A stretch of 61,560 nt of DNA, filler included, from Hausera hauseri (taxonomy: Eukaryota), in the NCBI GenBank assembly GCA_046269625.1. It is 11 parts of 11 records of this genome, joined end to end, with 100 filler letters (N's around TTAATTAATTAA, not from the genome) between each part and the next. Parts side by side here need not be neighbours in the genome. Positions count along the whole stretch, not along the records: positions 40,730 to 45,179 come from JBJURY010575450.1; 10 more parts are not named here. The stretch is one strand, 5' to 3'. The notes under the pieces are model-generated. The model was not told where the DNA came from and searched no databases. It saw only the letters and a program-made list of their open reading frames with translations. The position numbers were made by a program, and so were the translations under genes. The number at the start of each line of letters is the position of its first letter. Position 1 is the stretch's first letter. Shown here one piece after another: positions 14,122 through 61,560 of the stretch.

Positions 14122-14164
14122 CGCCAGAACTTGCCTTAAGCTCTGGCGGCGCAATTAGTTTTTT
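14122..14164 (-). promoter_or_regulatory. gag-pol -1 ribosomal frameshift signal (A AAA AAC + stem-loop)
   Basis: CCA AAA AAC TAA at gag end followed by an 11-bp stem CGCCAGAGCTT/AAGTTCTGGCG; equivalents at 28226-28267 and 48061-48102. Confidence 0.8.
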
Positions 14165-18827: not shown

Positions 18828-19050
18828 ATAAAAGTGATGGTATCATCCGAATGGATGGACAAAAAAGAATGCGAATTAACTACACATTCCTATGTGAGAG
18901 ACTTGAGAGAATGGCTGGCGAAAAACGGCGGAACAAACGAGTTAAACTACAGATTTTATTTTAGAGGTAGAATACTCGACGACCTAGAACAACTAATAGA
19001 TGTCGGGATTATTTCGGACGAAACGAATCGGATAGTGGTAGTAATAGCTA
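18828..19050 (+). other. Internal ubiquitin-like domain (no terminal GG)
   Basis: IKVMV...VRDLREWLA...YRFYFRGRILDDLEQLIDVGI resembles ubiquitin [21 protein letters not shown]. Confidence 0.65.
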
Positions 19051-19700
19051 ACGAACAAACAAAAGAAGAAGCTACACGTAAAGCCAAAACAGAGCAATGC
19101 GTAGGACAAATTAAGGGAGTCCGAGACGCCGCAATGTATTTTGAGTACTTACAAACGGATGAGGGTAAGGAACGATATGACATAAATTTAGTACCACTGA
19201 GCGAAATAACAACAAAAGGGCCGAGGCCGAAACGGCACGTAGGTAGGCCCAAGAAGTGGACTATAATGGAGAATTTATTAGACAATTGAGACAGATGTCG
19301 ATTCCGATTCTTAGTAGAGACAACGAAAAATTAAGCGAGTTAATAAAGAATTTACTACGAATTGTAAATTATTCCAGTCTTCGAGGTGACGTATTAGACG
19401 ATAAAGAAAAGAAAAAGTAACTTGGCCGATAAATCGGTAATCGAAAAGATCATGGTAGAAAACACCAACGAGGAGTTGAGAAAAGTGTTATTATATTTAG
19501 CTATCAAAATAAACCCTAACCGAGAGAGTGAAATCAATAGAGCTATAAGCTTAGCACGAAAAGCAGCAAGACGAATGCCTTGCGAAGTAAATTTGGCAAG
19601 ACTGTTTGACAAGGAAGAAGACAGACGGACCAGTAATAGACTCGACGATATATTACACAATTTAACAACGACGGGTGTTGGCCACCGGAAAAATGAGTCA

Positions 19701-27200: not shown

Positions 27201-29640
27201 CATCCATAATTGTCAAGTTGTTCAACTGTCGGTAGTCACCAAATGGTCTAAAAGCGCCGTCCTTCTTTGTACAACATGTAAAAGTGATGATCAATGAGAT
27301 TTGAAACGGCGTACAATGCCGGAGCGTTCTAGTTCGAAAAATTCGGCTTCTACGGCCTGTCTACGACAAGGTGACAATGGTCGCACCTTTTGACGTATTG
27401 GTAGTTGATGCTGTGTAATTATGTAATGTACAGTGCTGTTTGTAGAGGTAAACTAACGATCTTTTTTAAGTACCCGTGGACATGATGTGGTAACAAATTG
27501 CTGTAATGTTGTAGGCAACTGTGATAGATTCGATGATGATCGTGAAACAGTTTGAGTAGTATTGGATACTATTTGTAAATTGTTTTGAGATGTGCAGTCA
27601 AGTGGTAAGATGGTCGAATTGAAAATGGCGTTGGATGAAGTGATTTCGTCAAGTGAATGAACATTGGTGACAGTACCACAATTATCGTCATTGAACCTCG
27701 ATCGAATATCGATATTATTATATAAAATTTAAGAATTGAATTATTGTTATAAAAATTCGAATTATTTATTGATTTGCCTACAATTAACCTCCGCATTCCG
27801 GTCGACTGCGCGGTAGTCGAAATGCTATTGACATGGCCAGAAATGTCACCAGTGGTGCCGTTCCTTAAACATTGTTGACTGCAGTCAACCAATAAATTAT
27901 AATGTGATAGAAAATAGGTCCCTAGAATTGTCATCTGGACGTTAGCAACTGCGAATGTCCAGTGGAAAGGTGAAGGGAATTTTGGTAAGATGAAAGATAG
28001 TTTAACCATGCCAAAAAAGTGCAGCGGTTGACGTGAAGCGGTGTATAAAGGTTTAATTCTGAATAGTAAATTTTGTACAGGGAAAGATTGTGGTAATAAG
28101 GAAATCGCTGCACCTGTATCAATGAGGAAATCAACGGATTGCGCTGTAGCAGCGGTGATTGCAGTCTTTAGAGTAAAGACAGCAAAAGAGGCGTGTCGGC
28201 ATTCATTAGGTGTAGCCGTGCCTTTGCCAGAGTTTGCCGTGACTTCTGGCGGAAAATTTAGTTTTTTTGGAAAGGTGAACTAGGACGACTATTAGAAAGA
28301 AAGGTAGCACGTCCGTCGTACGTATCAGTTTTGAAAGTGCAGCCTGGAATGTATTTACGGGCTTTATTTTTAACCTTTGCATGGTAAATATAAACAACGG
28401 TATCCGAAAAGAAGTTTTTATTATAAAATCTGCATCTTAGGCAGCATCTTTTGGCTTATGGTGACCGGTTTCTAGGTACAGAATGGGCGCGACCAGCGAC
28501 AAAATCCCTTCGGCGGGACAGCGAAAGTTCATTAAATTTATTATTAATATTGTTAATTGTTGCGTGTAGTGCAGTATTTTCGGCATGTAACTGATTTATC
28601 TGTTGTTCTATCGATGTGTTATTGCTTTAAATACCGTTTGCGGCAACTGCCACCTAAACGATTGGTCGGAGTTTAAGTGTAGAACGTCGTGTGTCTTGTC
28701 GGCTAATTCGGCCAATTTCTCAAGAGTGGTGGAGTCCTCCATCACGGTAAGGAGATCCAGAATTTGGATGGGTAACGCTTTGAGGAAGTAGTGGCGCAGT
28801 AGTTCTGGATTGTGTTCTTTAGTGACACTGAGAGTGTGTAGTTGTGCCAGAGAAGTACGTAAAAAGTCTGATGGTCGTTGTGCGCCTATAGCATTGTTAT
28901 GGTAGAAGCATTGTATGATAATCTCCATTGAGGATTCTGTGATCTTAAGAACAGAGTTGAAGAGTTGTGAATATGGATTAGGAAGTTCGAAGATTTCGAT
29001 GATGTTATGAATTCGTGTTTTGATATTGTTAGGGAGTAAGAAGAGGAGGTTGAGTGCTTTAGTTAATGAATCGGTAACGTTATTTGCTTGTAGCCACAGT
29101 TGGTGGAATTGCAGCCAAGTTTTGCTGGAGCCTTGGTTGTCAATAAAGAATTCAGTGCAGTGAGGGAAAGGAGAGGAAGAAATAGTAAGTGCAGGGTTAT
29201 TATTAGAAGTAGTAGTGGATTTTGGAGTAGTATGACGGGTTTTGGCGTCGTGGTGGTTTTATCCGTGGTGTCTATGGTTGGCGTTGAATTCATGCCACCA
29301 CTGATGCGCAAGTGTATGTGGTGGTGGGTATAAGTTGAAGAAGATTGTAGTGTTCCATCGACAGGTATTGTAGAGACGTTGTACGTGATGGAGAAGTCAG
29401 ATGAGTGAAAAGTGGAGATGGTGTTGTTGATATCTGTAGTGTTTATATGTGTTGATGCAGTTGTATAAATATGTATATTATTTAAAAAAGAAGAGAGAAA
29501 ATGGTGTGGATGTATAGCCAGGGGCGTGTCGTGGCGCGTTAGAAAACGGTGCCGTTCGACCCAATGGCATAGGGTGGGCGGCCGAGACTTCGACCCCGTC
29601 ATGGCGAATCTCAAACTTCGGGGTTACAGAGTTTCCCGCA
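24266..29640 (-). mobile_element. Degenerate CsRn1-like Gypsy, near full internal region with leader-Ubl
   Basis: HIHLRISGG|MNSTPTID (ATG 29293), Gag KLAELAD, FLIDTG protease, YIDD, RH, IN, S/T/P tail, PPT and terminal block. Confidence 0.92.
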
Positions 29641-29644
29641 GAAA

Positions 29645-30800
29645 TGGTAGGTTCAGGACGCGTATTATCGGACATGTATATTTGATGACTATTGGAATCG
29701 CATGCTTTCACAGGCAAGGTATAAATGTTCTCTTTGCCCGTTTCTAAAACCCAAACGTTCTCTCCCAGTGAAATATGAAATCACAAGTATCTCGGTTTAA
29801 CGACTAATAAAACGGACGACGGATGTCGGACTTCTTATGTGATATTTTTATCAATAAGTGTAACTTCAGTTTGGCCGTATTTTTTGCTGTAGCAGTTCAG
29901 CAATGAATATCAAGGGCTGTGATATGACTGTTGTTAACCTGGAGGGCATATTGACTGCTCGAAAGTTTTTATTTTATAAATGATCCTTGACTATGAACGT
30001 GTATTTTATACGATATGAGTGTTAGGAATCAAGTATGCGCATTGTGGCGATAAAGTAGCATTATCCATGACTAGAAGCCTAACATCTTGACTACGCACAG
30101 TACTTTTGACTTTTTCGTCGCGAAATATTAAAGAAACTCTAGCAGACACTGTTTTCGAGCCGCTGACTAACTGTGTATAACGTTTAAGTTCTTGTTGTTC
30201 CGTATTTCCAATCAACATTGGTGTTGAATATTCTGACTCAGTCCATGTTATAAATCCTAGAACACCTTGTGCATGGCTGCTTAAACTCGATGCATGTATA
30301 GACCATTCAAATAGCAAACCGTTCAACGTGGAGAACGTGTTACCGAATTTATCGGAAGGTCTGACGATAAGAGCTTTGGAAGTTTCATGTAAATATAACT
30401 CCTGTGTTCGGGTTTCAATCGGTAGGGGCTTAGTGACGTCATCAATAACGTTGCGGTGTACAATACGACCGGTAGCAGTTTTTGGCATTAATTGTAGCTG
30501 TTGCACGATGATTTGGTTGCCATAAAGAAGTAACAACAACCTCATTAGAACATTTTGCATCTGGATATAATGGTGTTATTGTTGCTACATCGGGAGTGTT
30601 TGAGGGCCATAGATGGCAAATGAAAAATGAGCCTCGTATCGTATAATATATGGGTTTAAAAGTACTTCTGCGTAAAAGAATCTTTGAATCATTTAACTTA
30701 AATTCAGTTCCTTTTATTACGTGTACATGTATGAAAAAACATGAGAATAAAATTTCAATAGGGCTCATGATAAAATTTATGAAATGAACGAAAATAGATG
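29645..30800 (-). pseudogene. NUP210: Intronless 5' fragment of nuclear pore glycoprotein gp210
   Basis: TQELYL...DKFGNTFSTLNGLLFEWSI and WVLETGKENIYTLPVKACDSNSHQIYMSDN match Nup210 ([44 protein letters not shown]); stops and frameshifts. Confidence 0.85.
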
Positions 30801-40729: not shown

Positions 40730-40835
40730 TCTTCATCGCTAATGTCCGAATCGGAAAATTTGTTGTAAAACATTTCCCGAGGTGGTAGGCTGGTTTCATC
40801 CAATTTGTTCCATGACGTTATGTAGTCATAGGGAA
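40730..40835 (-). pseudogene. Polinton-type DNA polymerase B fragment
   Basis: FPYDYITSWNKLDETSLPPREMFYNK. Confidence 0.75.
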
Positions 40836-42636
40836 TCACAAAACAAAAAATCACAAAACAAAATCTGTGGATTTAAGCTCATTTATTTAAATCCATAGTT
40901 TAAAGTCTGCAGTTAAGTATTCAAAAAGAATGATGAACGAATTGATCAGCCGTAGCAACAAGATGCCTTCTGAGAGAAAAACGAACGAACCGAGCAGTGG
41001 TAGCAGCAGGATGCCTCCAACGGCCAACAACTGTGTCAAAAAGCAATTGTGCTTAACCAATGCACCGAAACCTGGGAAACAAATCTCAAAGGAAGGTACA
41101 AAATCCACATTAGTCGGAATTGCCGAAAGGAAAATGCGTGTAGCGCCGAACTATCGGATACCAAAACGGCCTCAATCAGAGGTGACTACGATGCGAGATC
41201 TAGACGTCAGCCAAACCTCGGCAGTCAAGACTGACCAGCCGTGCGTGACCTGGCGAGACACCGGCTCCAAAGAAAGACGACGCCGCAACACAGGCAATTG
41301 TGCCCCGTACCGGTCCCACTCGGATTTTCTGACGGTACGGGTGCTGCTACAACGAAGCCGCTTCGTACGGCACCTGACCATATTGGGACGGAATGAATCC
41401 TATTCCTTACCCGGTGGAACGCTCCATTGGTTTTATGAGGACGGGAAAAATCGACGTCTTTTCGAATCGTCGGTTTTCCTGCTTGTCTTCCTGAGACTGC
41501 TGGCGACCGCAGACCGCCTATACGAATCGCTGGCTCCATCGGAGAGCCAGTTGATTTCTGACCGTCGAACCGCTGACAAACCGCAGGGTAGGACAGTGAG
41601 CTCCAGTCCAGACGAAGTTTTCGTACCGTGCCGTCGATGCCGGCTGCTGCCGGTAAGACTCGAACCAACAACAACCGATTCCAGTTCGGACGACGTTCCA
41701 ACCGGTGTACGCCGATGTCTCCGAAATGGCTCAGCATTGTCCTCCACGGACGCCTCGTACGCCTCGATTGACTCTACCAACACCGATTGTGATAACAATA
41801 AACTTTGTGACAATTACCCCGTTTTTTCTTCATTTTATTGTGTCATTTTTAATTTGTTGTTTTATCGCTATTATGTGGTGGGCCAGAGGTAAGGCCTGCA
41901 TTAAGGCACCGATCTCTAAAGTACCACTTATTAATGATTGTTGGAGCTGGAATAAAACGCAAATTGCCACGATAATAATTGTTGAAGATGTCGACTTGGG
42001 TCTTGTATTTGAGCAAATCGGATTCTCGCTGCCCACTTCGTCATCTCATCACGTCAATATTCATTATTATTATATCACTAATGACGACAACTCAAAATTG
42101 TTTATTGGTATATTACAAATACCCAGAGGATTATCGAAAATCTCTTTATTAAATGTTGGCTAATACGAACTGAAAATCGAGATGTATTATCGAATTGATA
42201 ACGAAATTCAATTTGTCGATACGAATGAATTGTATCCGTATCAATTTGGTTGTAATAATGGCGAATGTCACTTAAAAATTAATGTTAAACAATTTTGTGT
42301 GCAAGTGGATTTGACATGCGTCGCTAATTCATCAGTTACTGATATTGAGAAATCGGAAATCCAAGGATTGGTACGAATTGGCGAATTGGAATTTGATCCG
42401 TCTGGTGCTATTGAGGTGAATATGATTGAAGGAATAGTAGAGGAAATGACAAGTCGGGCAATTCGTACATCATATAGTGTTTATGGGAAAATTATTTTAT
42501 TGAGTAATGAACCAGAAATTGCCGCAATCGTTGAGGCGGATCTATTTCGAAGGGATTATGCGAACAATTCGTCATTGGTTTGTAAAATGGACTTGTTGTG
42601 TAGTGAGCATAAAGTGACCGCTGAAGAAACATTACA

Positions 42637-44185
42637 GGCGGGGACCTCGGCTACCCCGAAATTTGTGATCCGCCGCGGCGGGGCTGAAGTCCCGGCCGCC
42701 CACTTTATACCATTTGGTCGGGCGGCACTGTTTGCAGACGCCCCACGACACGCCCTCGGCTACACGACCTCTCCGCATTTCCTCTTCTTTTTTCTAAATA
42801 ATAAACATATTTGCACAAATGCTTTAACACACTTAAATACTGCGGCTGTCTACAACATCATCTCCACTTTTCTTTGCTCATCTGACTTTTACCTCACACA
42901 CCACGGCTCCACGGTATTTCTCGTTGGACTTTGTAACGTTCTTCAACTTATATCAACCTCCACGTACACTTTCGCATCCGTGGTGGCATGAATTCATTGC
43001 CCGCCATAGACACCACGGATAAAACCACCACGAAACCAAAATCTGTCATACTATTTCAAAAACCCACTCTTGCTTCCACCAATAATACTTCACCTATTAC
43101 CTCTTCCGCTCCTTTCCCTAATTGCACCCTATTCTTCATTGACACCCAAGGCTCCAGCAAAACGTGGTTGCAATTACATCAACTGTGACTACAGGCAAAC
43201 AATATCACCGACCCCTTAACAAAGGCACACAATCTCCTCTTTTTACTCCCTAACAACATTAAAACACAAATTCATAACATCCTTGAAATCTTTGAACTTC
43301 CTGATTCATACTCACAGCTCTCCAACGCTGTTCATAAAATCACAGAACCCTCAATGGACATCATCATACAACGCTTCTTCCACGACAATGTTATAGGCAC
43401 ACCATCAGAATTTTTACGCACGTCTTTGGCACATCTGCACACTCTCGGCGTCACTAAAGAACACAACCCCGAACTACTGCGTCATTACTTTCTTAACGCG
43501 TTACCCATCCAAATTCGGGTCCTACTTACCGTGGTGGATGACTCCACGGCTCTTGATAAATTAGCCGAATTAGCCGACAAGACACACGATATTCTACACT
43601 TAAATTCCCTATTAGTCGTTTCGGTGGCAGTTGTCCCTAACGATATTCAATCCAATAACATATCAATAGAACAACAACTCACACAGCTACGTGCTGAAAA
43701 TACCGCAATACACATAAATATTAACAATATAAACAACAAAATGAACGAGCTTTCCCTGTCCCGGAGAAGGGATTTTGTTGCTAACCGCGCCCATTCTGCA
43801 TCTAGAAACCGACCACCATCGTTTGCGAAGTCGTCGATCTGCTATTATCGTAGCAGAATTAATAAGAATGCCAAAAATGCTGCCTAGAGTGCAAATTTTA
43901 CAATAAAAGTTTTCCTTCAAACACCGTTGTTTGATTTTACCACGCAAAGTTTAAAAATCAAGCCCGTAAATGCATTCCAAGCTGCACCTTCAAACCAGAG
44001 ACGAACGACGGACGTATTACCTTTTCTTTTAATAGTAGTCCTAGTTCAATCACTTCGACGAAATCACTTCATCCAACACCATTTTCAATTCAACCATCTT
44101 ACACCAAATACCACTTGACTGCACATCACCAAACAATTCACAAATCGCATCCGCAACTACTAAAGCTGCTTCACTATCATTATTG
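42637..44185 (+). mobile_element. CsRn1-like Gypsy fragment: leader-Ubl-Gag, protease deleted, truncated
   Basis: HVHFRIRGG|MNSLPAID (ATG 42988); LRHYFLNALPIQIR; 44100-44185 matches the pro-RT linker of the other copies. Confidence 0.88.
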
Positions 44186-44448
44186 ACTAAAAAAATCATA
44201 CTAATACCACATATTTCCATATTACTTTACAACCGCAGTTCTTACTTATTTCTGGAATCTATCAAGTGTTATACTGAACCGGAATATTTAATAAACAGCA
44301 GCAATAACACGATGAATAAGAGGCTTTTTGGACAAGCACAATATCCGCTAAATCTTAACTCACATATTCCGAAAGAATTTCAAAGAATTATTCCGGGCTC
44401 TGTTCCAGATGGAACATCAAATCCCATTTATTGGTCAGATTCTTTAAA

Positions 44449-45179
44449 GGAAATAGCATTCCTCCTGGTTTTAATGACCACGTGGAGATACCACGCTACC
44501 CATCTTGCTGTGTATCCCCATCATTTTCTATCTACCGTTTTGTCAATAATAAATTTATCCATACAGGGCATATAACACAATGTATCGACACAATACAATT
44601 ATATGACCTCATTCATAAATTCGCTACTTTTAATGACTTTTATTTGACTCACAATGGATTTATTTTAACTGACCTCTCACACATCCTGTCCACACACTAC
44701 TACCTCTGTATTCACATCCACCCTAGAATTCGCAGCAGTATGATTTCTTTACCAAACAGTGACATAACAAATAAGATGACCACAAAACCAAAATCCATTA
44801 TCTACTATCCAAAATCAAACCATCTAACTCCCCCAACCGATACTAGCTTTTCTGACAAAACCTCTACAATTACACTTTCACATTGCTCTGTATACTTTAC
44901 AGACAATGAAAATTCTAGTAAGACTTGGCTACACTTCCATCAACTTTGGCTACAATCTAACTGCATTACCGACTCGTTAACCAAAGCCCATAATCTACTC
45001 GACCTTCTACCAAACTCCATAAAGACCTCAATCCATAACTTACTGGACATCTTTCAACATCCAAACCCTTATACGCAATTGTTCAGTGCTGTATTAAAGC
45101 TAACAGAACCACCACCTGACTCGATAATACAACGATTCTTTAATGAAAACGCAATGGGGACACAAAAACCTAGTGATTT
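44449..45179 (+). mobile_element. CsRn1-like Gypsy fragment: leader-Ubl (GG mutated to SS)-Gag start
   Basis: DFYLTHNG...HIHPRIRSS|M (ATG 44740), SSKTWLHFHQLWLQSN. Confidence 0.85.
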
Positions 45180-45332: not shown

Positions 45333-45519
45333 GGCTATCATTTAAATATTATGATAATGTTCCAACAAATGGTATATATTGGACTAAAAGTAGAGAAACT
45401 GGCGAAAGTGAGATGTTATATGAATATTAATGGTTATCGTTTTCGTCCTCTTATCTTACCAAGCGCTAGTCGGGATTTGTTTGTTAGAATGCATGATAAA
45501 ATCCATATGCATGTTTGCA

Positions 45520-45790
45520 CGTCAATATCTAATGGTGGAATCATTCCCCCGCGGAGGGGCACCGCGAGAACAATGGTCAGGTGTGCTTGTAGGTTTAATA
45601 TAAATGTCTTTTTATATTGCTATATATTGATTAAGGGAATTTGGAGGCTGGGGAGAATTCGTAGATCGAATATCATGGGATCTGGAGTTAATAACGAGAT
45701 GAAGAATATGAAGTTTAATGACAAAAGGAGGGAGACAAGGAGAGACATAATAAATATGTTGTGTATGAATGGGATGCAGCCGTATAATAA
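45520..45790 (-). mobile_element. Diverged isolated Ubl-GG|M cassette of the same family
   Basis: AHLTIVLAVPLRGG|MIPPLDID matches the GG|MxxxxxID of other copies; Gag stops a few codons later. Confidence 0.55.
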
Positions 45791-46134
45791 TAATAACCTT
45801 CGAGTATATTGCAATAATATCATCGTAAATTTCCTAATTAAAAATGTGCGGATGTTTCGCATGGCGATGGAATTAGTAAAAAATGGGTCAGTTCAATAAT
45901 GCTGACAAAAAATCCGTATAAGTTGGTTACGGGGTCGAGTAATTCTACGATTCAAAAATTTCTAAGCGGAAACAAGAAAGCATGCATCCCGAGAAACGAA
46001 TCATATGGGCCCAAAGAAGGGATGGTGAAAGTTATACGGGAGGGTTGCGTCAGAAACAAATTGGACTCCCATTTAAAGGAAGACATATAATAATCTGACG
46101 AATTTGTTGTGCCAATTTCGTATAAATTTTCCAT

Positions 46135-49100
46135 GCGGTGTGTTTCCTTGAAGAGTTTGAAGTTGGAGAAAAATGTCGGATTTTGTTGTGAGTGTTGTGT
46201 CGTGCAAAGATGAGTCAGAATAAAGAGAAGGAGAAAGTGAAGGAGGAAGAGAGATTGTTGAAGACGAAGAAATAATAAAAGGTGTAGTGGCTGATAAAGG
46301 AAGAGAGAAAGAAATTGGAATTGAATTGGTTAAAAGAGTGGAAGTGGAAGATGAAGCAGAGGTAATGGTAGAGAAAGGAAGAGAGATATCGATAGAAGCA
46401 AAGAAAGGAGAAAGTCGCGAAGTGAAAGTGAAAGGGGTAGAAGACGATGTGTGAGGAGAAACGGCGGAAGAAAGGGCCGAAGATGAAGAAGATGTGGAAA
46501 GAGAAGGAGAGAGCAAGAAAAAACGGCGAAGAGTTATAAGGCGAAAGAGAGCGAGAAGATGGAGAAGGCAAGGGAAAGTAGTTGGAAGGTGGTATGCAAG
46601 AGGTAGGAATGATGAAAGGTATAGGTGGAGAGATTGGTTAAGTCAAAGTGGTGTTTGATGGAGGAAGTATTGTAAGAGGAAAAAGTAGGTTGTTACCAGG
46701 GGATGGAGGAGGTGTTGGAAAGCTTGAAGGTGCAAAATCGGATGGGGCGAAAGAGGCTGAATTGGGAGAAGAAATTGAAGTGGAAGTTTTTGGAGAAAAC
46801 GTAGAAGAAATTGGATTAAGAAATTGAGCAGAGATGGAAGGTGAAATGTTGGATTGCTGCGCGTCGTGCAAAGATGTTGGTGGAGAAGTGACTTCAATGG
46901 GAGACGTATCGTCGATGAAGAAGGCCGGTTTAACATTATTGATGTGAACGGTTACTTCTTTGTCGCCTTTGGGAATGATGATGTTATGGGAGTGTAAGCA
47001 AATCAATTTGTAAGGGCCGACATACTGAGGTTGAAAGCCACACGGCGTCTGATTGTTTAACCAAACGAACTTGGCAGTATTTAAATCGTCGGATTTGTAG
47101 GGTTTATTTGCGTGTAACAATCTGAAAAATGACTCTTTGCTGATCTCAACGAAGTGTCTTTGTGCCGCTTGTATGGTTTTGTCTGTAGGAGTATTGTCCA
47201 ACTCAGTCAGCTCGAATAATGATTTGATAGATGTGCCAAATAATTCTTCTGCAGGTGAACAGCCTGTAGAAGTAGATGGTGTGTTCCGCCAGCCAAGCAG
47301 AACGTACGGAAGGAGTTTGCTCCAACTGCGCTTGGACTCAGCAAGAATTTTAAGAGACGTTTTCATCGTTCAATGAAAGCTTTCGAGAAGGCCATTCGAT
47401 TGGGGATTATATGGTGACGTGTAAATGTGGTTAATTCCCAATCAATTAACAAGAGCTTTAAACAGGTTGGATTCGAACTGTGGCCCTTGGTCCAAAATGA
47501 TGTGGCGAGGTGATCCAAACCTGCTGATCCAAGTGCGGATGAAAACGTTTGCAATAGTTTCTGTGTTGGTGCTCCGAAGCGGGACAGCCTCTGGCCATCG
47601 CGAGGAACGATCCATCATTGTAAGAATGAACTGATGGCCGTTGTCTAAGGGTAATGGGCCTACAAGGTCAATGTGAACAGATTCGAAACGAGACGTGCAG
47701 GCAAAATGAAATAATGGTAACATTAGGTGCTTAGTAACTTTGTATTTTTGGCATGCCACACACTGCCTAACCCATGCCTGCACGTCAGAGCGCATCGACG
47801 GAAATACTACTTGGCATTGTAAGAGTCGAAAAGTGGCCTTGGCACCGGGATGATGCAACGAATAGATGCTATTGAATGCTTCTTTTTGAAGCGATTCAGA
47901 AAGGATGACTTTAGGATTATTAAGTTTGGAAGTGTCGAAAGCCACATCGTCGGTGTCTATAAGAAAGTTAATGTTTTGCTTTGTTGGAGTATCAAATATG
48001 CTTCCAACGTGAATACAGCAAAGAAAAGTGTCGGCTATCTTTTTGGAGGTTGGTGCCTTTGCTAACACTTGCCATGTGTCGTAGCGGCGAAATTAGTTTT
48101 TTGTACCTTGTGAGTTTGGCCCACTGTGCTGTGCGAATTTCGTGGTGTTGGTTTTATTGTGTATGTTGTAGTTGCAGCCAGGTAGGCATTTTTGTGCTTT
48201 TGTGCCAAATTTTGAGTGACAGATGCAAAAGATGTTGCTTGTATTAAAATCAGGGTAATAAAATTGACAACCGATGCAGCATTTCTGACCATTATTACCA
48301 AATTTGCTATGATACTAGCAAATAGATGACCGCGCGAGCGAAGGCGACCGTCTTTGATGTTGATTAAATACATTAGGGGAAGCAGGCCTAGAAAAACCCC
48401 GTCGAGGCAGCGTTAATTCTTTTAATTTTTGGTTTATGTTGTTTATTGTTTCTTGCAGAATTTAATTTTCTGTGGGTAATTGCGCAATTTGTTGCTGCAG
48501 CATTGCATTTTGTTGCTGTTGATATGTTGTTAATGCCGCATTGACAGTTGGTGTTGTGTGCGAGTGCAGTACTTCGTATGCCTTGTTTGTCAGTCGGCTA
48601 GCTTGTCCAGAGCCGTGGAGTCTTTGACGACGGTAAGCAAAGCTCTTATTTGAAGGGGCAATGCATTTAGAAAGTAGCAGAGAATAAGTTTTGGACTATG
48701 CTCAGATGTTACGCCAAGGTGTTGAGGTGAAACAAGAATGTGCGTAAGAATTCAGAAGGCTTCTGAAGACCCATGGCGTTATCGTTGAAAAATCTTTGAA
48801 TGATTGAATTGATTGAAGGTTCAGTCAGCTTGAGAACGACATTATACAGTTGAGTATATGGGTTAGTGTGCTGAAGGATATCGATTATAGTGGTAATTTT
48901 GGTTACGATAGAAAGTGGTAAGTGGTAAAAGAGGCTAATAGCTTTGGATAGAGTCGACGACGTTCTGTGATTGCAGCCAAAATTGGTGCAGTTTTAGCCA
49001 AGTTTGAGTAGAGTTTTGGCTGTCGAGGAAATATTCAGTGCAAGGTGAATAAGTGAGGAATGTGCGTTGTGTAGAGATGTTGGAAGCGCTGTGTTTGGAT

Positions 49101-49640
49101 AAATGAATGATGGGGATCTGTGGTTTGTAAGTTTGTCCGTGGTATCAATTTTGGGCGATAAATCCATGCCACCACGGGTACGGAAATGAATATGAAAGCA
49201 GACGCAAGTTGTAGAAAGTTGGAGGGGTTTAGCGAAAGGTACTACACATTCATTGTATGTGATGTACAAGTCAGAGGAGTGGAGTAGGGTAGAGATGAAG
49301 TTATGAATGGTTTCAGTGTGTAAATGCAATGCTGTGTGTATATATTTGTTATGTAGAAAAAGAAAGATGGAGTAGGGAGAGGTGATATGTCCGGGGCGTG
49401 TTGTGAGGTGTCAGCGAAAGGCGCCCTCTGACCCACTGGCGCAGCGTGGGTGGCAGGGACCTCAGCCTCGCCGCGGCGGGTCCCAAATTTCGGTGTGACT
49501 GAATACTTACCTGTTTCAATGCGAGGTGTTTTGTAGATGACAAACGGTTGGATGGGTGATTTGGCAGCGATTTTGTAGGAATTGTATTGTGGAACTGTGG
49601 TGACGCCGAAATAATTGTACGATAGCTTAGTACTCCGGAG
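46135..49640 (-). mobile_element. CsRn1-like Gypsy with internal deletion (protease to RH), leader-Ubl, twin-CHCC Gag, IN with very long S/P tail
   Basis: HIHFRTRGG|MDLSPKID (ATG 49167); NFLIDTDDVAFDTSK junction joins the protease start to the IN region. Confidence 0.9.
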
Positions 49641-50039
49641 TATGTCAGCTCGAGATTCTTTAACTTTTTCTGATTGAATATTTTGGTTCGTTTTACTAGA
49701 TTTTTTATAGTCAAAGACTTTGACTCTTCAACTGATCTCATAAGCAGTTGGTTAGATGCATTTGAAACGGTTTAACTGGATTCTGTTCTGTCGGCCATAT
49801 TGTAACGACCAGACATTTCAAAAGAATAGTGCATAGTTTTGACAATTTTATACGGCTTATTACTATAGACAACTTGAAGATTCTCCACATGATTTTTATC
49901 TGCCTTTGCAAGGAGTTCAATTTTGCTTATTATTTCTTGATTTTGGTTATTGTACAGTTTACCTGTGGATTTTATTGCACTGACTTGACTTGCGATATTA
50001 TAACCACGGCCTTCTCTTTTATTTGATTCCGACGCAATC

Positions 50040-51500
50040 TTTAGCATACATTCTATTGCTTCCAAGCTATCCGGCATGTCTGCTTTGACAATGATTCGCA
50101 CATCCGGCACCTCGATATCTCGTTCAATTTTTGGATCATGGATAAAATCGGCCAGTTGAGGACGATTAGCTCGAAATCGATAACCTTTTCGATATTTCTC
50201 CACCAATTATTCGTTGTAACTTTTACAATAACCGTCGAGTAATTTTAAATAGGGTTTGTAATCCTCGGACGATTTTTTATTGTCCAATTCCCTAAGGCAA
50301 TTATTGATTACAACTTTTACATGTTGTTCATTCGGCACTTCAATCAACAAATCACCGGCTTTTGGATCACCGTTTTTCCATCCAGTGATGTGAATTGGAT
50401 TACTTGGACTGGCTATTGTAAATAGATGCCTGGAATCCGATAGTATCTTTCGAACTTTAGCCCAAGCCAATACTGCTATACAAACTGTACCGATTTTCAT
50501 ACATCTTTGTTGAACTAAAACTTGCTACTTTTCCGAAATTTTCCGTCATTTTTGAATCGAGAATAACCTTTTCCACGGGCCGTTGTAATCCGTTCTCAAA
50601 TTGAGAACTTCCTATGGGGCTTAAATAGATTCTTGAAGTACATCGAAATTCCACTGTTTCTCATCTGATTTTGGAATAAATTGTACATCTCCACCGTAAT
50701 CTTCGACAACAATGCCAAGTTTTGCCAGACTTTCTTTAATTGGTTCAAAATCCTTCTTAGAATTATTCGGTATCATATCGGTGAATGATTTCGAAATTCG
50801 ATCAATCTTGTTTACAGCAACTATGATGGGAACTTTAGCTTCTTTGGAATATCTGATCAATTCTAAAGTTTGAGGCATAAGTCCATCTTCAGGTGCAACT
50901 ACTAGCACAATAATGTCCGTACAATTCGCGCCCCGAAAACGCATATCTGAAAGTGCTGCATGGCCCGGAGTGTCGATAAATGTTACGACATCGACTATTC
51001 TGTTTTTTGTGAATCTTTGGTTAAATACTTTTTACTAAGGTCGAATAAATTAACTTTGAATGCGCCAGTATGTTATATAGTTCCGTCGAACTCCAATTCA
51101 ACTTGTTTGCTTCAACGTAAATTGTCGAATAAAATCGTTTTACCATGATTAACATGCCCCATTATTGTCACAATAAGTAACCGATGTTTAGTATTTAATA
51201 TGGAATGAGAACGTCTCAAAGAAATATATGTCTTTTGATAAAATTTCGTTGTTTCTTCAGCACGGAACTCGATAGAACGTCCAAATACTTAGCCACGACC
51301 CTCAGCAAATATGGATCACTGAAAGCCGTAGTTGGCGATACCGTTTGCTTTTATGATGCACGTTTTTTGACAACCATCATAAAATCAAAAACATCATTTC
51401 CAATGGAATTCGATAATTCAGAAACGGTAGTATCTTTGCATACCAACACTTTCCGTTTGTCCTTTCGCTTGACTTTTACAAAAGCTTTATATATCGAACA
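50040..51500 (-). pseudogene. MTIF2: Intronless mitochondrial translation initiation factor IF-2 fragment
   Basis: [53 protein letters not shown]; stops and frameshifts; truncated. Confidence 0.85.
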
Positions 51501-51849
51501 AAGTGGCTGAACTGCATATCGATGTATCCATACCACAGGCGATACGATGATTCGCATGGGTGTTGCGCGACTGTTTAGTATCATGCAATTATAAAACAAT
51601 CGTTTTGTAAAGACCAGGACGATTATAATTTGTAGAAATATTACGAAAGAAAATGTTATCTGACACCAATTGTGGTTATATATTATCACAAATAGCAGGC
51701 GAATGCACAAAAATGAGCCGCTAAAACGACAAATCCAAAATTCAAAAAGAAACGTGATTAAAATAAAGTTCCAAAATTTCAAAGTACAGCAAATTTCAAT
51801 CGCAAAGGTAAATACAAAATTACGACTGAATAGAAAAACTCTAAGTATA

Positions 51850-53253
51850 AATAAAGTTCTTTGTTATCCACTGGCGTTTATCATCAAACGTATCTAGCGC
51901 CTTCTTTTTGGTACTAATCGTCATTAATTGATGGTTCTTGGTCCCAATCCGTTCTTGATCAACAATTGTCCCGCATTCATTTTTGTATGCCTGTATGTAG
52001 TTGATGAATTGTAGGTCTGTCTGTTTTAGGTTTATGCCCTTGCATTTAAGGACCGGTTTGCTTTTGGTTTTAAGGGCATACGATTTCGGTCGTAAGAAAA
52101 TTGCTTCTTGATATTCAACACTACCCTTACTCTCGTCCTTAAATTTTCCTATAACGGACGCCAAACTAGTAGAATAAAGAGGGTATATAGCGTCATAGTT
52201 AAAAGTGTCCAACTGTTCATTAGCTATCATTGCTGGTTAGAATTGAGACCGCAGACCAACTCCACGACACTCAAGAAAAAGCTGTGCGTGTCACGAGCAA
52301 CAATATTTAATTCACAATTAAACTGTTGCCCATATGTCTCCAACTCAATATAATTAAGCTCATACATTCTCAATTTGGATAGATCACGTACGGCCTGACC
52401 TATGTATGCGGGTCTATCTAAGATGACCATGTCTTTATCGAGAAGAACAGCAACCACATCATCTGCGATTATAATGTCTCTGTAAACTGTGCTTTACTAG
52501 CATAAGTAACAAGCTTTTTAGCATTATTACACAATTTTAAGTTGGACATTTTCAGCTGATTTTCACCCGTTTTGCCATACAAGCTATTGTTCTTCAGCTT
52601 AGAAAAGTTTTTTTCAAAAGGATTATTCGCTGCAGCCCTCTTCGCAGTGTTTAGAATCGATATAATCCTTAAAGACATAGACTTGGTCAGTCTCAATAGC
52701 TTGATGTACCTTTTCAACTATAGCGCCTAACTGGATGTACAACTGTAAGAGCCTATAGTGAATAACATAGTTGGACTTACGCTCATGTGTCAGCAACAAT
52801 TTCTTTACTTTGGAACCAAGAGGACATTGGTTGATTTGAGCTACAGGCGGTTGGTCAAACTTATCATGTTTGTCAGCCGGAATTCTAAAGTCAACTTGAA
52901 AGACTAAGCCTCGTTTTTCTCTAACATAGTAAATAAAAGGTAATTGTTCAAGCAGGCTAGTTAATTTGTCCTCATCATATATCCATACCAAATTCTCAAA
53001 TGGCAGAGGTTGAGATAAAGCTTAGCCGTACAAATTATTTACCACTATATACAAAAACTGGTGCTCTCATCAGCGATAACCCTATGCTTATTTACAAAAG
53101 TCATGCCACTGCGATTACCTGATTGAAAGAAATTCTACATTTCGGGATCTTGAATGCGCTCAATCTTACAAGGACTTGATTTCATTGCTGTCGCCCAAGA
53201 AAAACCAGGAATTGACACAAAATTAACCGCCTCTAAACCATCCTGCAACTTAA
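51850..53253 (-). pseudogene. Polinton/adintovirus protein-primed DNA polymerase B relic
   Basis: KLKNNSLYGKT, YIGQAVRDLSK, IGKFKDE, LRPKSYA, KCKGI, DDKR. Confidence 0.9.
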
Positions 53254-54449
53254 NNNNNNNNNNNNNNNNNNNNNNNNNNNNNNNNNNNNNNNNNNNNTTA
53301 ATTAATTAANNNNNNNNNNNNNNNNNNNNNNNNNNNNNNNNNNNNNNNNNNNNTTACTCTAAATTCGATAACTCAATCAGACATCTCTTCATTATCATTG
53401 CAATCAAATCATCCGACTGTCTCATCTCATCAGACTCAGGATCCTTCGGAATTAGTACTACCAATGAGCAAGTTACACACAGGCATGTGTGCACACCATA
53501 CGCGACTGTCACTCGGTGCATGAAAATTCGACCCTATTGTTCATTATCCAATGTTTATTGTCGTAAATGTACTAATAATTATTGATCAAAATACGAGATA
53601 TCAATTACATTTTACCAGCATCGTCAAATAACTCCTAACAAAAGCTGCTAATGTCGTCGTCAAGCATTTCGAAAAATCCAGAAAGAAATATGGATGATCA
53701 AGTGTTTTTCTCTCTCAAGTCCGTTTTCGTCTCTCATGATGTATTCGTTTGACAGCAAATACCAGCAAAATGAGATTTGGACTAGAAATTATTTCCCAAA
53801 ATATTCGATGCAATATACAGAAAACTTAAAAAAGTACCAGGACATGATAATAATGAGAAAATTCGTCAACGATTAATTTCGAAATCCCTTACACAACGAA
53901 TGATAAAAATATTTCGTGGTACATCGAAATATTATCTGAAAAATTTATCCCAGACAAAATGCAAAGAACAAGGCAGCTAATGAAAATTATTAGTGTATTG
54001 AGAACATTTTAATTAACGTATAGTCTTTCTTCCTGTCCTATTAAACATATTGAATGCATGATGAATGAAAAACCATTCCAACCAAAAATTCAATCAATTC
54101 GGATTTTCCTACTTATGTCAGACAGATTTAATTTTCAACTGGTAATACGTCGTTCTTGTAAGAATCCAAATATCAGCATAAGCGGTGAAATGTTAACGAT
54201 GTGATTTATAATTTGACTGTTGCACGTATATAATTTCAACCCACCGTTTTATACTCACTATTCAACAAAATGATTTGTACCTTATTAAATTCTTTAATTT
54301 GTTTAAATATTCAATAAAATTTTTAACGATTTGAATTTTTCAACTTGTTCCTGCCATTTTAGCATTATCATTATTTTATCTTGGAATTTTGTTTTGATCA
54401 CGGACATTGTGCAATTCTTAACTATTCTCGGAATTTTTCGAGCTAACAC

Positions 54450-54810
54450 CATGCTACCACGAATACGGAGGTGTACATTAATAATGAGGTATTGGGTTGA
54501 AGAAGAGGAAAGATGACGAAAACTGACGCTATTTAGAGGTAGATAGTTAAGAATGAGATAAAAGTTAGAGATATTAGCAAAGTGTTGTACATACTTGTGT
54601 AAGTAAAGTGCGTCTTTATGGTGTGTTGTATTGTGTGTTAATATTTGGAAATTATTTAGTGCAAAGAAAAGGAAGAGGGTTAGTGTGGGTCCTAGTGGGT
54701 GATATAATAATGCAAAGGGACCGTGGCACAGGGCAGACGGCCAGGAACTCGGTCCAGCCATAACGCACCAGAAAATCGGGAGTGGCCGAATCTTCCTCAG
54801 TGGGTCCGGC
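54450..54810 (-). mobile_element. Isolated leader-Ubl cassette ending at the Gag ATG
   Basis: SATPDF...FLFFALNN...NFYLILN...NVHLRIRGS|M, then non-Gag sequence. Confidence 0.75.
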
Positions 54811-57800
54811 TGAAGTAACGATGTTCACACAGTAGAATGTTAATGATCGTACGCCTCGTAAATTACTGTACAAATTATTGTCCCGCAAGGCATTTGTCTG
54901 TTGGTTTTTTAATTTGAGTAAATTTAGAGCCATTTCGAATTGTTCGATGTTGAGTGACATATTATTTTGTTTAAAACCGCTCGTCAGTCTGACTAGACTG
55001 ATAAGAGGAAAATATCAGTCATTTTGCCGACTGCGTGACAAGCTTCCGCCTGTAAATTGGAATCCCTAAAAGCCGAAGTGATTTGATTAGAAACATTTTG
55101 CACAAAATTAACAATCTCTTTATCGAATGGCAAATGTGCATTCCTCTCAAATGCAGCTTCGACCATTTGGAACAACTTTGACAAAGACTTCTATAGGGAC
55201 ATCTGCTCATATTCCAAATGAAACAATCGAAAGTATTTTTGACTGGTCAAGTTTTCGTATTCTACCGATGTTTTATTATTGTTTGTTGATACTTTAACAA
55301 GAGTACAGTTTACTATTGAGATCGAGGAACAATTTTAATAGTTTCGAATACTCGTTTTCCAATGTTTGGTGAAAGAATCCTGTTTGATTTTCCGATAGTG
55401 AAGTGTTAAAAGATTCTTTAAGAATGTCTGATATCCATATTTGATAATAATGCCCAGCGTAAGATACCGAATCGATAAATAGTTTGGTACAAAACTCCCT
55501 CATCTCGTATTTTCCTGAATCGCTTTGTAAATTTTCAATTGATGATTTTTGCGTATACATATCTCGCTTTTTGTGTATAACTTTGGACAATAGCAAAATA
55601 AGGGACATATTTGCTAAACATGCTTTTTTAAACTAACAACTATTTCGTTAGGTGTAATTTCAAGGAACACCGAATTTTATTGAATAAGTTTTTGTAATTT
55701 TAACTGGATCCATCCGATTACCTTTCGAATAATTTCACTGGAGTTTTCGAGATATTGAAGCAGACTTGACAAACTTAAAGGCCTATCTTTCTTCTTAATA
55801 ACTTTTCTAAAAGGCTTTATTGGTCGATATTCATTACTGGTCGTACTCACGGGAGTCGGTCTTGAGGATAATTGGAGTCCGTTGTTATGAGATGAAGGGT
55901 TTGTTGGGGTAGACTTAGCATCGATCGTGCCTTTTGCTTTAGATGTATGAAAACCATCAATCGAATGTTTATCTGTGGTGTTGTGTCGAACTTTAAGGTT
56001 CAACCCTTGCGAAGGAAAATCATCCTTGAAACTGACCGATTCTCCTTGGACTTCGAACATTTATGGATTGAAGTCTGATTGTGGTCGAAGAATTTGTTAA
56101 ATATTGTGAGATACATGAGAAAAATTAACAGCCGGACTCCTTATTTACACCCATTTTTATCTCTTAAATAGTTTAACTTGAGAAAATTTGACGGTTTCCT
56201 TTTTTATTGTAAAATCATAATATTTGCCAAATGTTACGGTTGATTTTGTGAATCCTGAACAGTCAGATTCGGTATCGTCATTATTCGAATTTATGATTCC
56301 GTTTTCAATGTAATTACACGTACTTTTGGAGTCAAAAATGGTGGGGAAGAGTAGGTACTAGCGTTTGACATTAAGTTCCGTTGAGTAGCAATAAAGCGAC
56401 TCCATGCCATACATTCCTTTTGTAGGATATATTACTAGACGACTTTCGATTTATAAAGGATTCGTGATTTCGATGTCACCATTCCCTGGTAAGTGGGTTG
56501 AATGTATTGCGTGACAAAAATTTGAAACCATGAGTAGACACAAAATGTAACGTGTTAAGGATAAATTGAAAGTCATTATTGGACATAAAGAAAGACATTG
56601 ATTCGCACAAAGCCGGGTCTAAGAATTTTTTGTGTGGGTATTAAAAATATATAATCATTACGCTTTGTTTCATAACATGTGTAACGAGAGCGTCCTCCTC
56701 GATTCCTAAAAGATCCATTAAACACGGACTGGCGTAATCACATTCACTGCTGGGTTGGATACCAAATGAATCGTTGAGGAATGAACGCACAAGATTGTAA
56801 TGCAAATATAGATATTCTTCGTAGTACATTTTGTGCCGAATTAAAAGTAAAATTATTAGCATACGATGGGTTTGTGAAACAGCAAAATTATTATATTTGA
56901 TATTTTTGGAAAATGATATGTACAATGAGCCCTGGTACGGCATCGTTCCTTAATTGAAATGCTAAATTGGCCCGAATCGAATCACTATTAGCGGTGGCGC
57001 TGCCTTCTTTCCTTTGTTTAACTGCATTTAAATAGTTGTGATTATTTTTACGAACGAAGAATATTGCGCAGCCTTCAATACCTCCTGGAAATTTTACACC
57101 AGGTGAAAACAACCACCTTTTGGCCTGAAAATCTTCAACAAATTTATGCATCAAAAAATAAACTACATTTTTACACAAAATTACGATTTGGTTTGCCAAT
57201 AATCGCGCCAAAACAAATGCATAAATACGGCGCACTTGCCTCAAAATTTAAAAATTCAACTCCTTTGTAACCACGAACAAGTGCCAAAATGCCATCAACA
57301 TTGCCGACAACTCCCGACACCTCTCTTAGAAACAACGCACATAATTGAATTCCATCACCAGATCCAATCGATTTTAGTCAAACGTAAAATGTGAAACTGT
57401 AACTGCACACAACTAGAGAAAAACAATGCAATAATAACATTCAATGAATAAACTAATGCCAAAATAATTGTCCATAATTATATTGAAAAAATAATTNNNN
57501 NNNNNNNNNNNNNNNNNNNNNNNNNNNNNNNNNNNNNNNNTTAATTAATTAANNNNNNNNNNNNNNNNNNNNNNNNNNNNNNNNNNNNNNNNNNNNATAT
57601 ATAGAAACCGTGATGAAATTTTAAGTTTGGCGCTGAGAAATTTATGTATTTTCATGCATTGAAATAAATTTTTGTACGTCTATGCATGACATTAACAAGT
57701 CAAGTACACTATGGAAACAAGTTCATGTAAATGATGCATTAAAACAAAGTGTTCTAGAATGTTTGGAAAAATCCATAAACGGAGAAATATGTGCGTTGAC

Positions 57801-59569
57801 ATGGCTACATATTTTATTATTTCCAAATTCACTTCCAAGAATGGTGAGTTTTGTTATTTTTGCTCCTCAAATAATTGGTTTGTTTAGATTTGCAACTGCT
57901 ACAAATTTTGCATGGCGCAGAAACACGAGGAGCAGAATTGCCAGTGTAATACAGCATTACTTTGGATACCAACACAATAGGACTCAATAATATGTATGTC
58001 CTGCATGTGAGATAGTGTTCCAGACCGGTTACGAGGAATTTTACAACCAACATAAACAGCATCTGGATTCGTTCACAAAATAGGAGAAAGCTATATTCAA
58101 CAGTAATATGCTAATGACAACAAGTGTCCCAAAAGCAAATCAGATGTGCGTTTCCTATGCGTATTGCACATCAAAAGCACATAATCCGCAACAATGTCAT
58201 AAAGCAATGCAGCGGTATTATGGACACAAATACAAAAGGATCCAATATTACATATGTCCGGGATGCAAGACTGTATGCGGTGCAGATTACATATAGTTCT
58301 ACTGTGATCACAAACATTATTTGAGTCACTTCGCATCAAAATAAAAGAAGGCCATCTATAATGAGCAACATAATATTGATGCATCTACTTCGCAGTGTTA
58401 TGCGTCGCAGTATGATGCTTCGCAGCATTATGCTTCTCATTATGCAGCTGGATCTTGTGCAGCAGCTGCGAAGCATATTAGAGAATTAAAACGCGCAGCC
58501 GCATCGTGCGCATCAGGGCCATCAGGCGCAGCAGCATCAGACACGGCCACATCAGACGCACCGGCTCCATCAAAAAGCCAAAGACAGCGGCCAGTGGATG
58601 CGGCAGCATTAAAGAAAAAATGCCGCAAATATGTTATTGAGGCAACTGGTCAAACAACCCTCCGAGAGTTCCCCTTATAAACAATGGAAGAAACAGAGGG
58701 GATTCTTCAGGACAACATTGTGGTGCCGCAGACTCGGACACCACCATAATCCACCTCACAGGAGAGAATCAACTCTACCATTAAATAGAGAATCGAAGGT
58801 CCTCAAAAATTTAGTAGTAGCAGATTCTGAACAGAATTTAAAAAATTCCATATCTCAATAATTTTACCAGCCGTTCATTTCTGCCAAACACGATGAAGTA
58901 ATCGACTCAGAGATGATGTTCGTCTTCATTCACAATCGCCCGTACCCTACAATCAGTTACGCTTGGCCTGTATACGGCTGTTCGTTTCCACCGACAAATC
59001 CTATCACCAATGCCAACCATTATTCGGGCAATCGTATTGTGAACAATTTTGTCCGCTCAAAGGATACATGTATATCCACATATAGTGATATATCTAGGCC
59101 TTTTTACATTTTCATTCACCTTTTTTTATTTTTGTTTGCGCAAACAACTGACTACAGTTCAACAGAATCAAAAGAAGACCTTATCTCGGTGTTGTACAAA
59201 ATCCTTCACTATTAACATTATTTTAGCATTTTAGCATTTTATGTTTGCTTAACTGATTTTAATCATTATTATTTTGACAAACTCTTGTATATATATATAT
59301 ATACTCAATCAATCGACTCTTCCGGTACACTTCAGTGCAAGTTCAAACTACCTCATCAATACTCCAAATACGTCATTTCACATTTTGCTTGTATATATTG
59401 TATAAAATTTAGTTACTTATGTGTGTAGAATAAAAAAAAATGATTTTGTAGATTATCGATGAAATTTTTGAATGTATAGAATAATAAAACTTGTCAATCA
59501 GCTTTTTCTTATCGATTTATAATAACTGTGATTTATTCGAAATTTTTATATTCTCATTCTATGTACAAA

Positions 59570-60090
59570 ATAATGGTGTCAGAAGTCTACAGAACTGTGA
59601 TACAATATCATAAAATTTTACGTTTGTCACCACTTAAAATTGAAAATTTCATATATTCAATGGTTTCCAATGAAAATTCCATGTTATTATCAGAAATTCA
59701 TGTCTTTATTAAAATTGTTAATTCGTGAAGATGAATATGCAAACACGTCATATCTTGATGGATGTTATGACATGGCCGGAAATGTGGCAACAATACATCA
59801 CCTCAATGGATGAAACCAGAGAGAAAATAACCATTCCAGAATCGTTCCAATTCGCTTGTCTTGACGATCGAATCAACGTATTGGAATTTTTATTGGATTT
59901 ATTCGTCTACGGCCCATCACTAAGAGCAGAAATATCGAGAAAATTTCATAACTCACGAAGACTGTCGAAATGTCAGACGAGCGGCGAAGTTCTTTGCTGT
60001 GAAGCTTTTTCAGCTGTTTACCATTTGGATTGTTTGGGTATACCATCAGTACCGAAATCTCCATGCACTTACACGGTTCCTCTCCTCTAG
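59570..60090 (+). pseudogene. BPTF/NURF301-like fragment (DDT, WHIM1, PHD)
   Basis: ILRLSPLKIENF...LLSEIHV; MDVMTWPE; RINVLEFLLDLF; CQTSGEVLCCEAFSAVYHLDCL. Confidence 0.8.
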
Positions 60091-60838: not shown

Positions 60839-61560
60839 TTACAATGACACATGTCCGTGAGGTAGTGTGTAGATTCCATGGTTCAGGATCTGGCGCTTGT
60901 CGTCCATCCAATCTAAACTTTTCTTTTGCAGTGTTACAGTTTGGATGTTATGATCCCTAGATTGGATTCTTCGCATCTCTGATATAATGTGAGTCTGCTC
61001 CTGCAGAACTCTCATAATCCTAAAAACTGATCTTCTTGGCCAATGTAGTCCTTTGAACACCCTTAGCTCTCTTTTTTATCTGGCCACATATCAATCGCGT
61101 ACATCTTAGATTTGAGAGCTACAAATCTCGAGATTATTGCTCCATTCACCTTGTTTTTGAGTTTCCCTAGGAACTTCTGGTTGGCAATAGAATAATTTGG
61201 ATGATCCTTTGCATAATCCGAGGTATCCATATGTTGGGGCAATTGGGCAAAGTCATTATAAATATCATCTGTATGGATCTTATATATGAAACTATCAGTA
61301 TTCATACACATCAGCTGCATAGACTTTAACTTGGGGACCATGATGTCATAATGGAATTGATACACCAAGGTCTTTGACAGATCAAATATTGCCATACCCA
61401 CATATATGGGCTTACTGAATACCAAGGATGTTTTCAGCATATGTATTCTGACCAAGTTCTCAGTATATATGGTGCTGCTGTAGAAGTTAGACTTTGCAAT
61501 AAGCTTCTTTGCCCGTTTCCACTCAGAAACCAGCTCGATATTGATCCTGTTACGGATATT
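60839..61560 (-). pseudogene. Polinton-type DNA polymerase B C-terminal relic
   Basis: KPIYVGMAIFDLSK, NTDSFIY, DTSDY, FVALKSKMYA, DDKR..TLPHGH. Confidence 0.9.

Follow-up and report, generated by a model that had tools for sequence, protein, structure and literature searches.

Host-gene pieces ahead of a ubiquitin-like domain and Gag in a decayed Ty3/gypsy-order retroelement family of Hausera hauseri

Described systems and the present locus

Capture of host genes by LTR elements normally cripples the element. Among the products of such capture, LTR-mediated retrocopies are described as partial, sometimes multi-gene pieces of mRNA, joined by template switching, transcribed in sense, frequently keeping the reading frame of the parental protein and at times copied again, the piece replacing part of the internal ORFs of a non-autonomous element that has both its LTRs (Tan et al., 2016, PMC5131818, partial text). 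The CsRn1 clade (PwRn1, AgCRs) is another point of comparison: its elements have a CHCC Gag motif, a weak DUF7041, the order PR-RT-RH-IN, a GPY motif and a polypurine tract followed by TG, together with paired LTRs, a tRNA-Trp primer-binding site (PBS) in the leader and target-site duplication (PMC2582038, partial text). In cytopathogenic pestiviruses, a ubiquitin unit is placed in the polyprotein, and cellular hydrolases use it to make the authentic downstream N-terminus (PMC8310069, partial text), while in Ty1 the CYC5 and CYC3 sequences pair the 5' and 3' ends of the RNA over a long range (PMC7969010, partial text).

We set beside these systems a family found in a window (the whole stretch of DNA analysed) of 61,560 nt, filler included, from Hausera hauseri (GCA_046269625.1), made of 11 contigs of about 4–8 kb each linked by N's, in which all upstream stretches stop at a contig end. 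As in the LTR-mediated retrocopies, the host pieces here, as captured, are partial, sense and intronless, and come at times from several genes; unlike what is described there, the cargo is placed in front of a complete gag-pol, always at the same site, and is followed by a ubiquitin-like domain (Ubl) with a terminal di-glycine (PMC5131818, partial text). The Gag, Pol and polypurine features listed for the CsRn1 clade, which was compared by description, are shared, whereas its paired LTRs, leader PBS and target-site duplication are not seen here, and the N-terminal Ubl and the host cargo would set the present family apart (PMC2582038, partial text). The pestiviral unit is a true ubiquitin, recently captured by an RNA virus (PMC8310069, partial text); the Ubl here is in contrast old, divergent and fixed across a retrotransposon lineage, and would be cleaved by analogy. 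The pairing of RNA ends resembles that of Ty1, from which it differs in being predicted only, in its length of about 130 degenerate nt and in reaching into the polypurine tract. We file the host-gene cargo ahead of Ubl-Gly-Gly-Gag as new, regarding it as a variant form of gene capture by LTR elements, here in a CsRn1-like family, and report for the first time the complementarity between leader and 3' tail; the literature searched (limited coverage) describes no Ubl-Gag, LTR-less or inverted-end gypsy element. Our best explanation, which we hold to be evenly poised between right and wrong, is a family of Ty3/gypsy order with Ubl-Gly-Gly-Gag and probable mobile host-gene cargo, likely translated in frame and likely cleaved by deubiquitinases.

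The element, its ubiquitin-like domain and its relatives

The window holds one retroelement family, with seven main copies (63–87% identity in a self-comparison of the window) and an Ubl remnant, copy H. Six decayed copies all begin at a fixed leader of about 125 nt, followed by Ubl and Gag, and stops and frameshifts are present in all window copies; the sole unbroken long frame of the window is that of an intact LINE ORF2 of 994 codons (537–3521, minus strand; endonuclease and reverse transcriptase). Copy B, whose body runs from leader to 3' tail at 24266–29655 (-), has in order leader, Ubl (Gly-Gly ending at 29294), Gag, protease, reverse transcriptase (RT), RNase H and integrase, then a polypurine tract (24403–24395) and a 3' tail starting with TG (24394–24266). 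In this copy and others, Pfam recognises in order RVT_1 (E=8e-29), RT_RNaseH (9e-27), Integrase_H2C2 and rve, with a weak protease match (E=0.03); the domain order is that of Ty3/gypsy (Metaviridae), Gag-PR-RT-RH-IN. Polypurine tract and TG are clear in B and F, and altered in G. The Gag signature is a tandem C-x2-H...C-x3-C (CHCC) in copy F and relatives, and DUF7041 is matched at E=0.017–0.025 in the window and at 2e-6 in the relative P0011, alone in reaching the cut-off. Gag, RT and integrase are under purifying selection, with between-copy dN/dS of 0.15–0.41 where computable (pS being saturated in four of nine pairs), which, together with the saturated synonymous sites, indicates that the copies derive from long-separated active lineages.

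The other copies are less complete. Copy F (10517–15876, minus strand) has leader (15600), Ubl ending R-G-G, gag-pol, polypurine tract and about 12 nt of tail only; copy G is a 3' half (6226–9538, minus strand) whose tail match to B ends at 6226/24266; and copy E (leader at 49510) extends from leader to a truncated integrase tail (46133–49525, minus strand). Copies A and C lie on JBJURY010575450.1 (40,730–45,179), on the plus strand. Copy A starts with the fixed leader at 42638; the leader (42638–42765, with an S-x-T-P-K start and complementary to the 3' tail) is followed by an Ubl ending R-G-G (42766–42987, frame break near 42931) and by a CsRn1-like Gag with a remnant of the next region, the remainder being deleted (42988–44186). 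In copy C (at 44449), leader, Ubl and Gag start form a single open frame (44443–45179) that is broken off where the contig stops; its Ubl ends R-S-S, the Gly-Gly being lost, and its DUF7041 match is at E=0.017. Copy D has leader and an Ubl ending R-G-S (54453–54830, minus strand) with no Gag behind; the frame runs on past the Ubl for some 50 non-Gag codons (54300–54453, minus strand), a possible Ubl-host fusion. Copy H, a divergent seventh Ubl remnant (45440–45892, minus strand) ending L-R-G-G-M, lies at 45553, co-oriented, behind copy E, and has no Pfam match. In C and H, which stand behind truncated A and E, element sequence flanks the captured piece on both sides; in the other copies such flanking on both sides is not seen.

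The Ubl is a domain of about 75 residues before Gag with a Gly-Gly end; this Gly-Gly is kept in five of seven window copies (C and D have lost it). Residues 10–97 of the relative P0003 have structural matches in the ubiquitin family (TM 0.75–0.79), the family profile of the domain has polyubiquitin as its top PDB match (E=0.005), and the model of the copy C domain gives strand-strand-helix-strand-strand, the order expected of ubiquitin, at pLDDT of about 58–79. Compared pairwise, copy C and P0003 match weakly (E=0.11), their link depending on alignment and position; a model of P0004 came out at too low a confidence for use (pLDDT 39). As modelled, the ubiquitin fold is real, which makes buffering of upstream cargo by cleavage plausible. 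A second, unrelated retroelement of the window (17200–22936, plus strand), which has a chuvirus-type fusion glycoprotein (PF24664, E=1e-15) ahead of its protease, contains an internal ubiquitin-like stretch at about 18870–19020 (PF00240, E=0.008) without terminal Gly-Gly.

Relatives of the element are few. Searched with HMMER, 1.84 billion representatives yielded 13 matches, four of which (P0005-7 and P0013) are low-complexity-like by many stretches; a word-based protein search gave no match with copy C, and two and five with family profiles, and no related locus was confirmed among the viral contigs or metagenome contigs searched. Gly-Gly is invariant in 11 of 11 rows of relatives (matches and cluster members), mostly without a following Met, P0009/P0022 and P0017 being left out of this count as having no Ubl. 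Named host pieces occur, among about eight distinct relatives, in a single cluster, that of P0001 and P0014 (ENA), with DIS3L at 44–361 (E=4e-25), CNOT1 at 439–544 (E=1e-16) and a whole Gag. P0014, an intact relative predicted from an assembly and known as protein only, has a single frame of 1,051 codons for DIS3L, CNOT1, leader, Ubl and Gag, about 700 of which stay free of stops from the two host genes on into the Ubl; a leader-like piece between its DIS3L and CNOT1 was considered and rejected. Three relatives (P0012, P0016 and P0021) have 80–165 unnamed residues in front, and three others (P0003, P0008 and P0010) a short front with a Met, so that Ubl-Gag predates the fusions. The similar records P0009 and P0022 join the Gag start to leucine-rich repeats, and P0017, in which a bacterial-type DUF5777 beta-barrel is joined to Gag, is probably an assembly chimera.

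The 5' junction and the DNA upstream of it

No recognisable 5' LTR is visible, as the preliminary description of this DNA had stated: the 3' tail of B or G has no direct copy in seven upstream stretches of 0.25–3.7 kb each, on contigs ending inside the mosaic (best, 16/200 shuffles). Nor is an intact PBS visible, the CsRn1 pattern giving five matches (with at most two mismatches) against 6.0 expected and none at the leader, and because this tRNA-Trp test failed the family is filed as CsRn1-like only, not as a member of CsRn1. Around the candidate ends of copy B no target-site duplication was seen. Two other candidates were rejected, a diverged 3' tail at 41860 (26, 180 and 1 of 500 shuffles, T-rich DNA driving the score) and the use of the junction as a splice acceptor (in the public run X1, 576 of a depth of 628 departs from A at 42637). 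Shared homology starts where it had been placed, the Ser codons of S-x-T-P lying at 42647, 29630, 44455, 54789 and 49502, and four long-diverged lineages have the same non-TGG leader start. That these codons vary mainly at third positions had been taken to mean that the leader is translated; the argument falls short of significance, since over 38 leader codons of copies A, B and E the variable columns number 10, 15 and 18 by codon position (p=0.15), and leader dN/dS (0.49–0.69) is not separable from that of a 3'-tail control (0.50–2.21). The leader is open and in-frame homologous in the intact relatives P0002 and P0014, and this is better evidence that it may be translated. As to a start codon, the visible tails of B and G have no ATG in the continuing frame.

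The leader is reverse-complementary, in a degenerate manner, to the polypurine tract and to the tail of about 130 nt behind it. Inverted, the leader of copy B agrees with its own tail at 88 of 138 aligned nt (0 of 1500 shuffles), and this is, by a small margin, the best non-leader match in the window. RNA duplex energies of leader and tail beat shuffles in eight of eight pairs (at most 4 of 150), against none of eight in the antisense control; alignment scores are significant for B with B only (p=5e-4), three of the seven remaining pairs coming close to 0.02, and DNA profiles of leader and tail fail to detect each other. Homology between B and G stops at the point corresponding to the 5' junction, and on the inverted alignment the border from Nup210 to leader, the divergence of the 5' copies and the end of the B-G tail fall within about 10 nt. 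We can understand this complementarity in three ways: as a long-range RNA contact, by analogy with CYC5/CYC3 of Ty1; as the long inverted ends of a giant LTR with cargo in its middle; or as the true inverted termini of an LTR-less element.

Upstream of the junction, the DNA differs between copies and lies in sense, and in both respects the preliminary description is borne out. No blastn match is found, and A-D alone of 15 pairs beat all 100 shuffles. Over 210 nt upstream, the least-stopped frame is sense in six of six copies (p=0.016); up to the contig ends, 35 of 50 tiles are sense, 11 tied and 4 antisense, although tiles are not independent, as compared with 11/6/6 downstream and a rough balance in three element-free contigs (6/4/9, 9/5/11 and 10/4/4). 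The upstream frame is also, as had been described, that of the leader in A, B, D and F, with E tied and C in another frame; four of six corresponds to p=0.10 against an expectation of 1/3 and to 0.009 against 1/6.

The gene content of the window comprises pieces of an Egalitarian winged helix, DDT-PHD, a tropomyosin-like protein and Nup210, which suggests an animal, and the host origin of three window pieces, and of two in the intact relative, is clear. In copy B alone does a named gene run in frame into the leader. Its decayed Nup210 piece (29664–30768, minus strand), in the leader frame and intronless over about 370 codons, is matched by Pfam Ig_NUP210 1st, 2nd and 4th and by human Nup210 316–393 (E=6.6e-8), and begins at its own Met and ends near human residue 390, with 1,104 nt from Met to junction and the frame open for 56 codons upstream of the Met. 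It retains a signal-peptide-like start, which would send an in-place fusion to the ER, off cytosolic Gag assembly. Behind the tail of copy B lies a sense open frame (23613–24260, minus strand, one stop in 199 codons), which was rejected as the rest of Nup210, not being recognised as such; homology between upstream and downstream flanks was also rejected. The mosaic before copy D (54800–56060, minus strand) holds, 0.5–1.3 kb away, an Egalitarian winged-helix piece (55680–56060) and a COG5 piece (55297–55632), after which come 70 open leader-frame codons that no tool assigned. Before copy E (49530–51288, minus strand) is found, at about 0.3 kb, mitochondrial IF2 (GTPase, EF-G D2 and IF-2 domains), followed by a piece that has two open frames and no assignment. 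In both D and E unrelated genes are chained on one strand, which is not what insertion into a single resident gene yields. Two fragments (51841–53021 and 61063–61560, both minus strand) have, on visual inspection, the look of a Polinton-type DNA polymerase B, without a Pfam match; the former has the same orientation as IF2 and copy E. An element-free contig carries a decayed, apparently intronless DDT and PHD piece, BPTF-like (59480–60090, plus strand).

Pfam and protein searches gave no gene name to the upstream pieces of A, C and F. That of F is a stretch of 90 codons (15876–15607) in frame with the leader, one stop intervening, and that of C (44186–44440, plus strand) is sense-coding, off the leader frame and without Pfam match. 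The cargo of copy A (41657–42637, plus strand) amounts to about 330 codons in the leader frame with one stop, and none across the 450 nt preceding the junction; it has a hydrophobic stretch near 41800–41890, a weak Ig-like match below cut-off (Pfam Ig_NOMO, E=0.0017) and no Atlas match. Further upstream is an open frame of 333 codons without Pfam match (40891–41892, plus strand), within which a repeat at about 41177–41623 reaches a summed X1 contig depth of 1,750–4,000 as against 116–290 alongside. This repeat, a single copy in the window with a depth like that of the element's leader, might represent a 5' module common to the family. The same upstream chain has another high-copy repeat (40730–40878), with a depth of about 70,000.

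In X1 (0.40 of the words), one contig spans the copy A junction (42566–42700) with no differences, and several contigs, 80–90% alike, cross it, 31–39 being counted at 42621–42637. Among the loose ends listed at this junction, at least nine contigs are like the upstream DNA of B and at least ten like that of E (agreement 0.56), and the best 6 of 88 loose-end rows show no dominant shared upstream sequence. The copy A cargo is multi-copy, as is every bin of the contig (40730–45179), at depths that could stem from duplicated or pooled DNA. The upstream pieces behave like subfamily-specific extensions.

Origin of the mosaics and their significance

The preferred explanation would run as follows. 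Host pieces would be captured ahead of the leader by reverse transcriptase switching between co-packaged RNAs, and template switching on mRNA gives sense, intronless pieces without selection. Translation would start upstream of the cargo, so that only in-frame captures would go on producing Gag and spread as subfamilies, and host deubiquitinases, by analogy, would cut after Gly-Gly, leaving the same Gag N-terminus whatever cargo precedes. The leader would pair with the 3' tail, either in a long-range contact within the RNA or because the two are long inverted ends of an LTR, and the promoter-bearing 5' end would lie past the ends of the 4–8 kb contigs rather than having been replaced; the real 5' end is probably outside these contigs. 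The earlier proposal, that the family borrows host promoters and start codons, is supported in so far as host pieces are fused in sense, mostly in frame, before Ubl-Gly-Gly-Gag; the support does not extend to a replaced 5' LTR or to host promoters and starts used in place, the upstream DNA being a multi-gene, multi-copy mosaic. This mosaic, the multi-copy junction and the signal-like start of Nup210 are better accounted for by cargo in a mobile unit than by one-off borrowing of promoters. Against mobile cargo stand the restriction of named in-frame genes to copy B, copy C, out of frame, copy E, ambiguous, an in-frame excess which taken alone has p=0.10, and the lack of a 5' LTR within up to 3.7 kb, since this implies cargo of great length; the sense frame behind the tail of B also counts against it, being unexplained unless the LTR itself contains cargo, as a giant LTR would.

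A rather improbable alternative, which extends the earlier proposal, is an LTR-less gene trap with degenerate inverted ends, inserting in host frames and using host promoter and start, from which the Ubl would free Gag. It would agree with the lack of both LTR and PBS in six of six copies, with three boundaries that the inverted alignment brings to within about 10 nt of one another, with the leader-tail duplex (eight of eight, antisense none of eight) and with the fact that the Nup210 and DIS3L pieces start near their own N-termini; yet the frame downstream of B is not recognised as the remaining Nup210, no target-site duplication is seen, the ends have no TG...CA, their profiles do not detect each other and their alignment is significant for B-B only, while the upstream DNA is multi-gene and multi-copy and signal or targeting peptides would misroute the fusion. 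That a Ty3/gypsy lineage has come to live without LTRs or tRNA priming, with inverted ends of about 130 nt, as a host-expressed gene trap growing in-frame mosaics, we hold to be unlikely. Returning to capture from mRNA, the copies may be dead-end chimeras of LTR-bearing masters located elsewhere, produced by a minus-strand jump near the PBS onto host mRNA, with untranslated upstream DNA and coincidental frame. Fixed junction, sense and lack of introns would all follow without selection, every window copy is broken, the in-frame excess is at p=0.10 only, and the S-x-T-P codons resemble by eye a tRNA-Trp PBS minus its TGG (PMC2582038, partial text); we nevertheless find this quite unlikely in view of the roughly 700 codons open in P0014 through two host genes into the Ubl, of the lack of a dominant shared upstream sequence in the best 6 of 88 X1 loose-end rows and of the same non-TGG start in four long-diverged lineages. 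Ordinary decayed insertions into DNA that is gene-dense, duplicated or pooled, to which assembly chimeras would add, are very unlikely to account for the whole: the decayed, apparently intronless DDT-PHD piece of an element-free contig, the multi-copy state of all bins of 40730–45179 and the example of such a chimera in P0017 favour them, but they fit neither the sense bias (six of six copies and 35:4 tiles against balanced controls), nor the letter-for-letter recovery of the copy A junction in an X1 contig, nor one fixed junction position, unexpected under random truncation.

Under the preferred reading of mobile host-gene cargo, an autonomous element could, thanks to a di-glycine Ubl before Gag, put up with whatever in-frame cargo stands at the N-terminus, and would be a lasting source of host-gene mosaics, a gene-shuffling machine. 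If the cleavage is true, this would be a case of a mobile element exploiting the ubiquitin-processing system of its host; if the LTR-less reading were true, we would have before us a new way in which a retroelement with a DDE integrase achieves expression and marks its ends.
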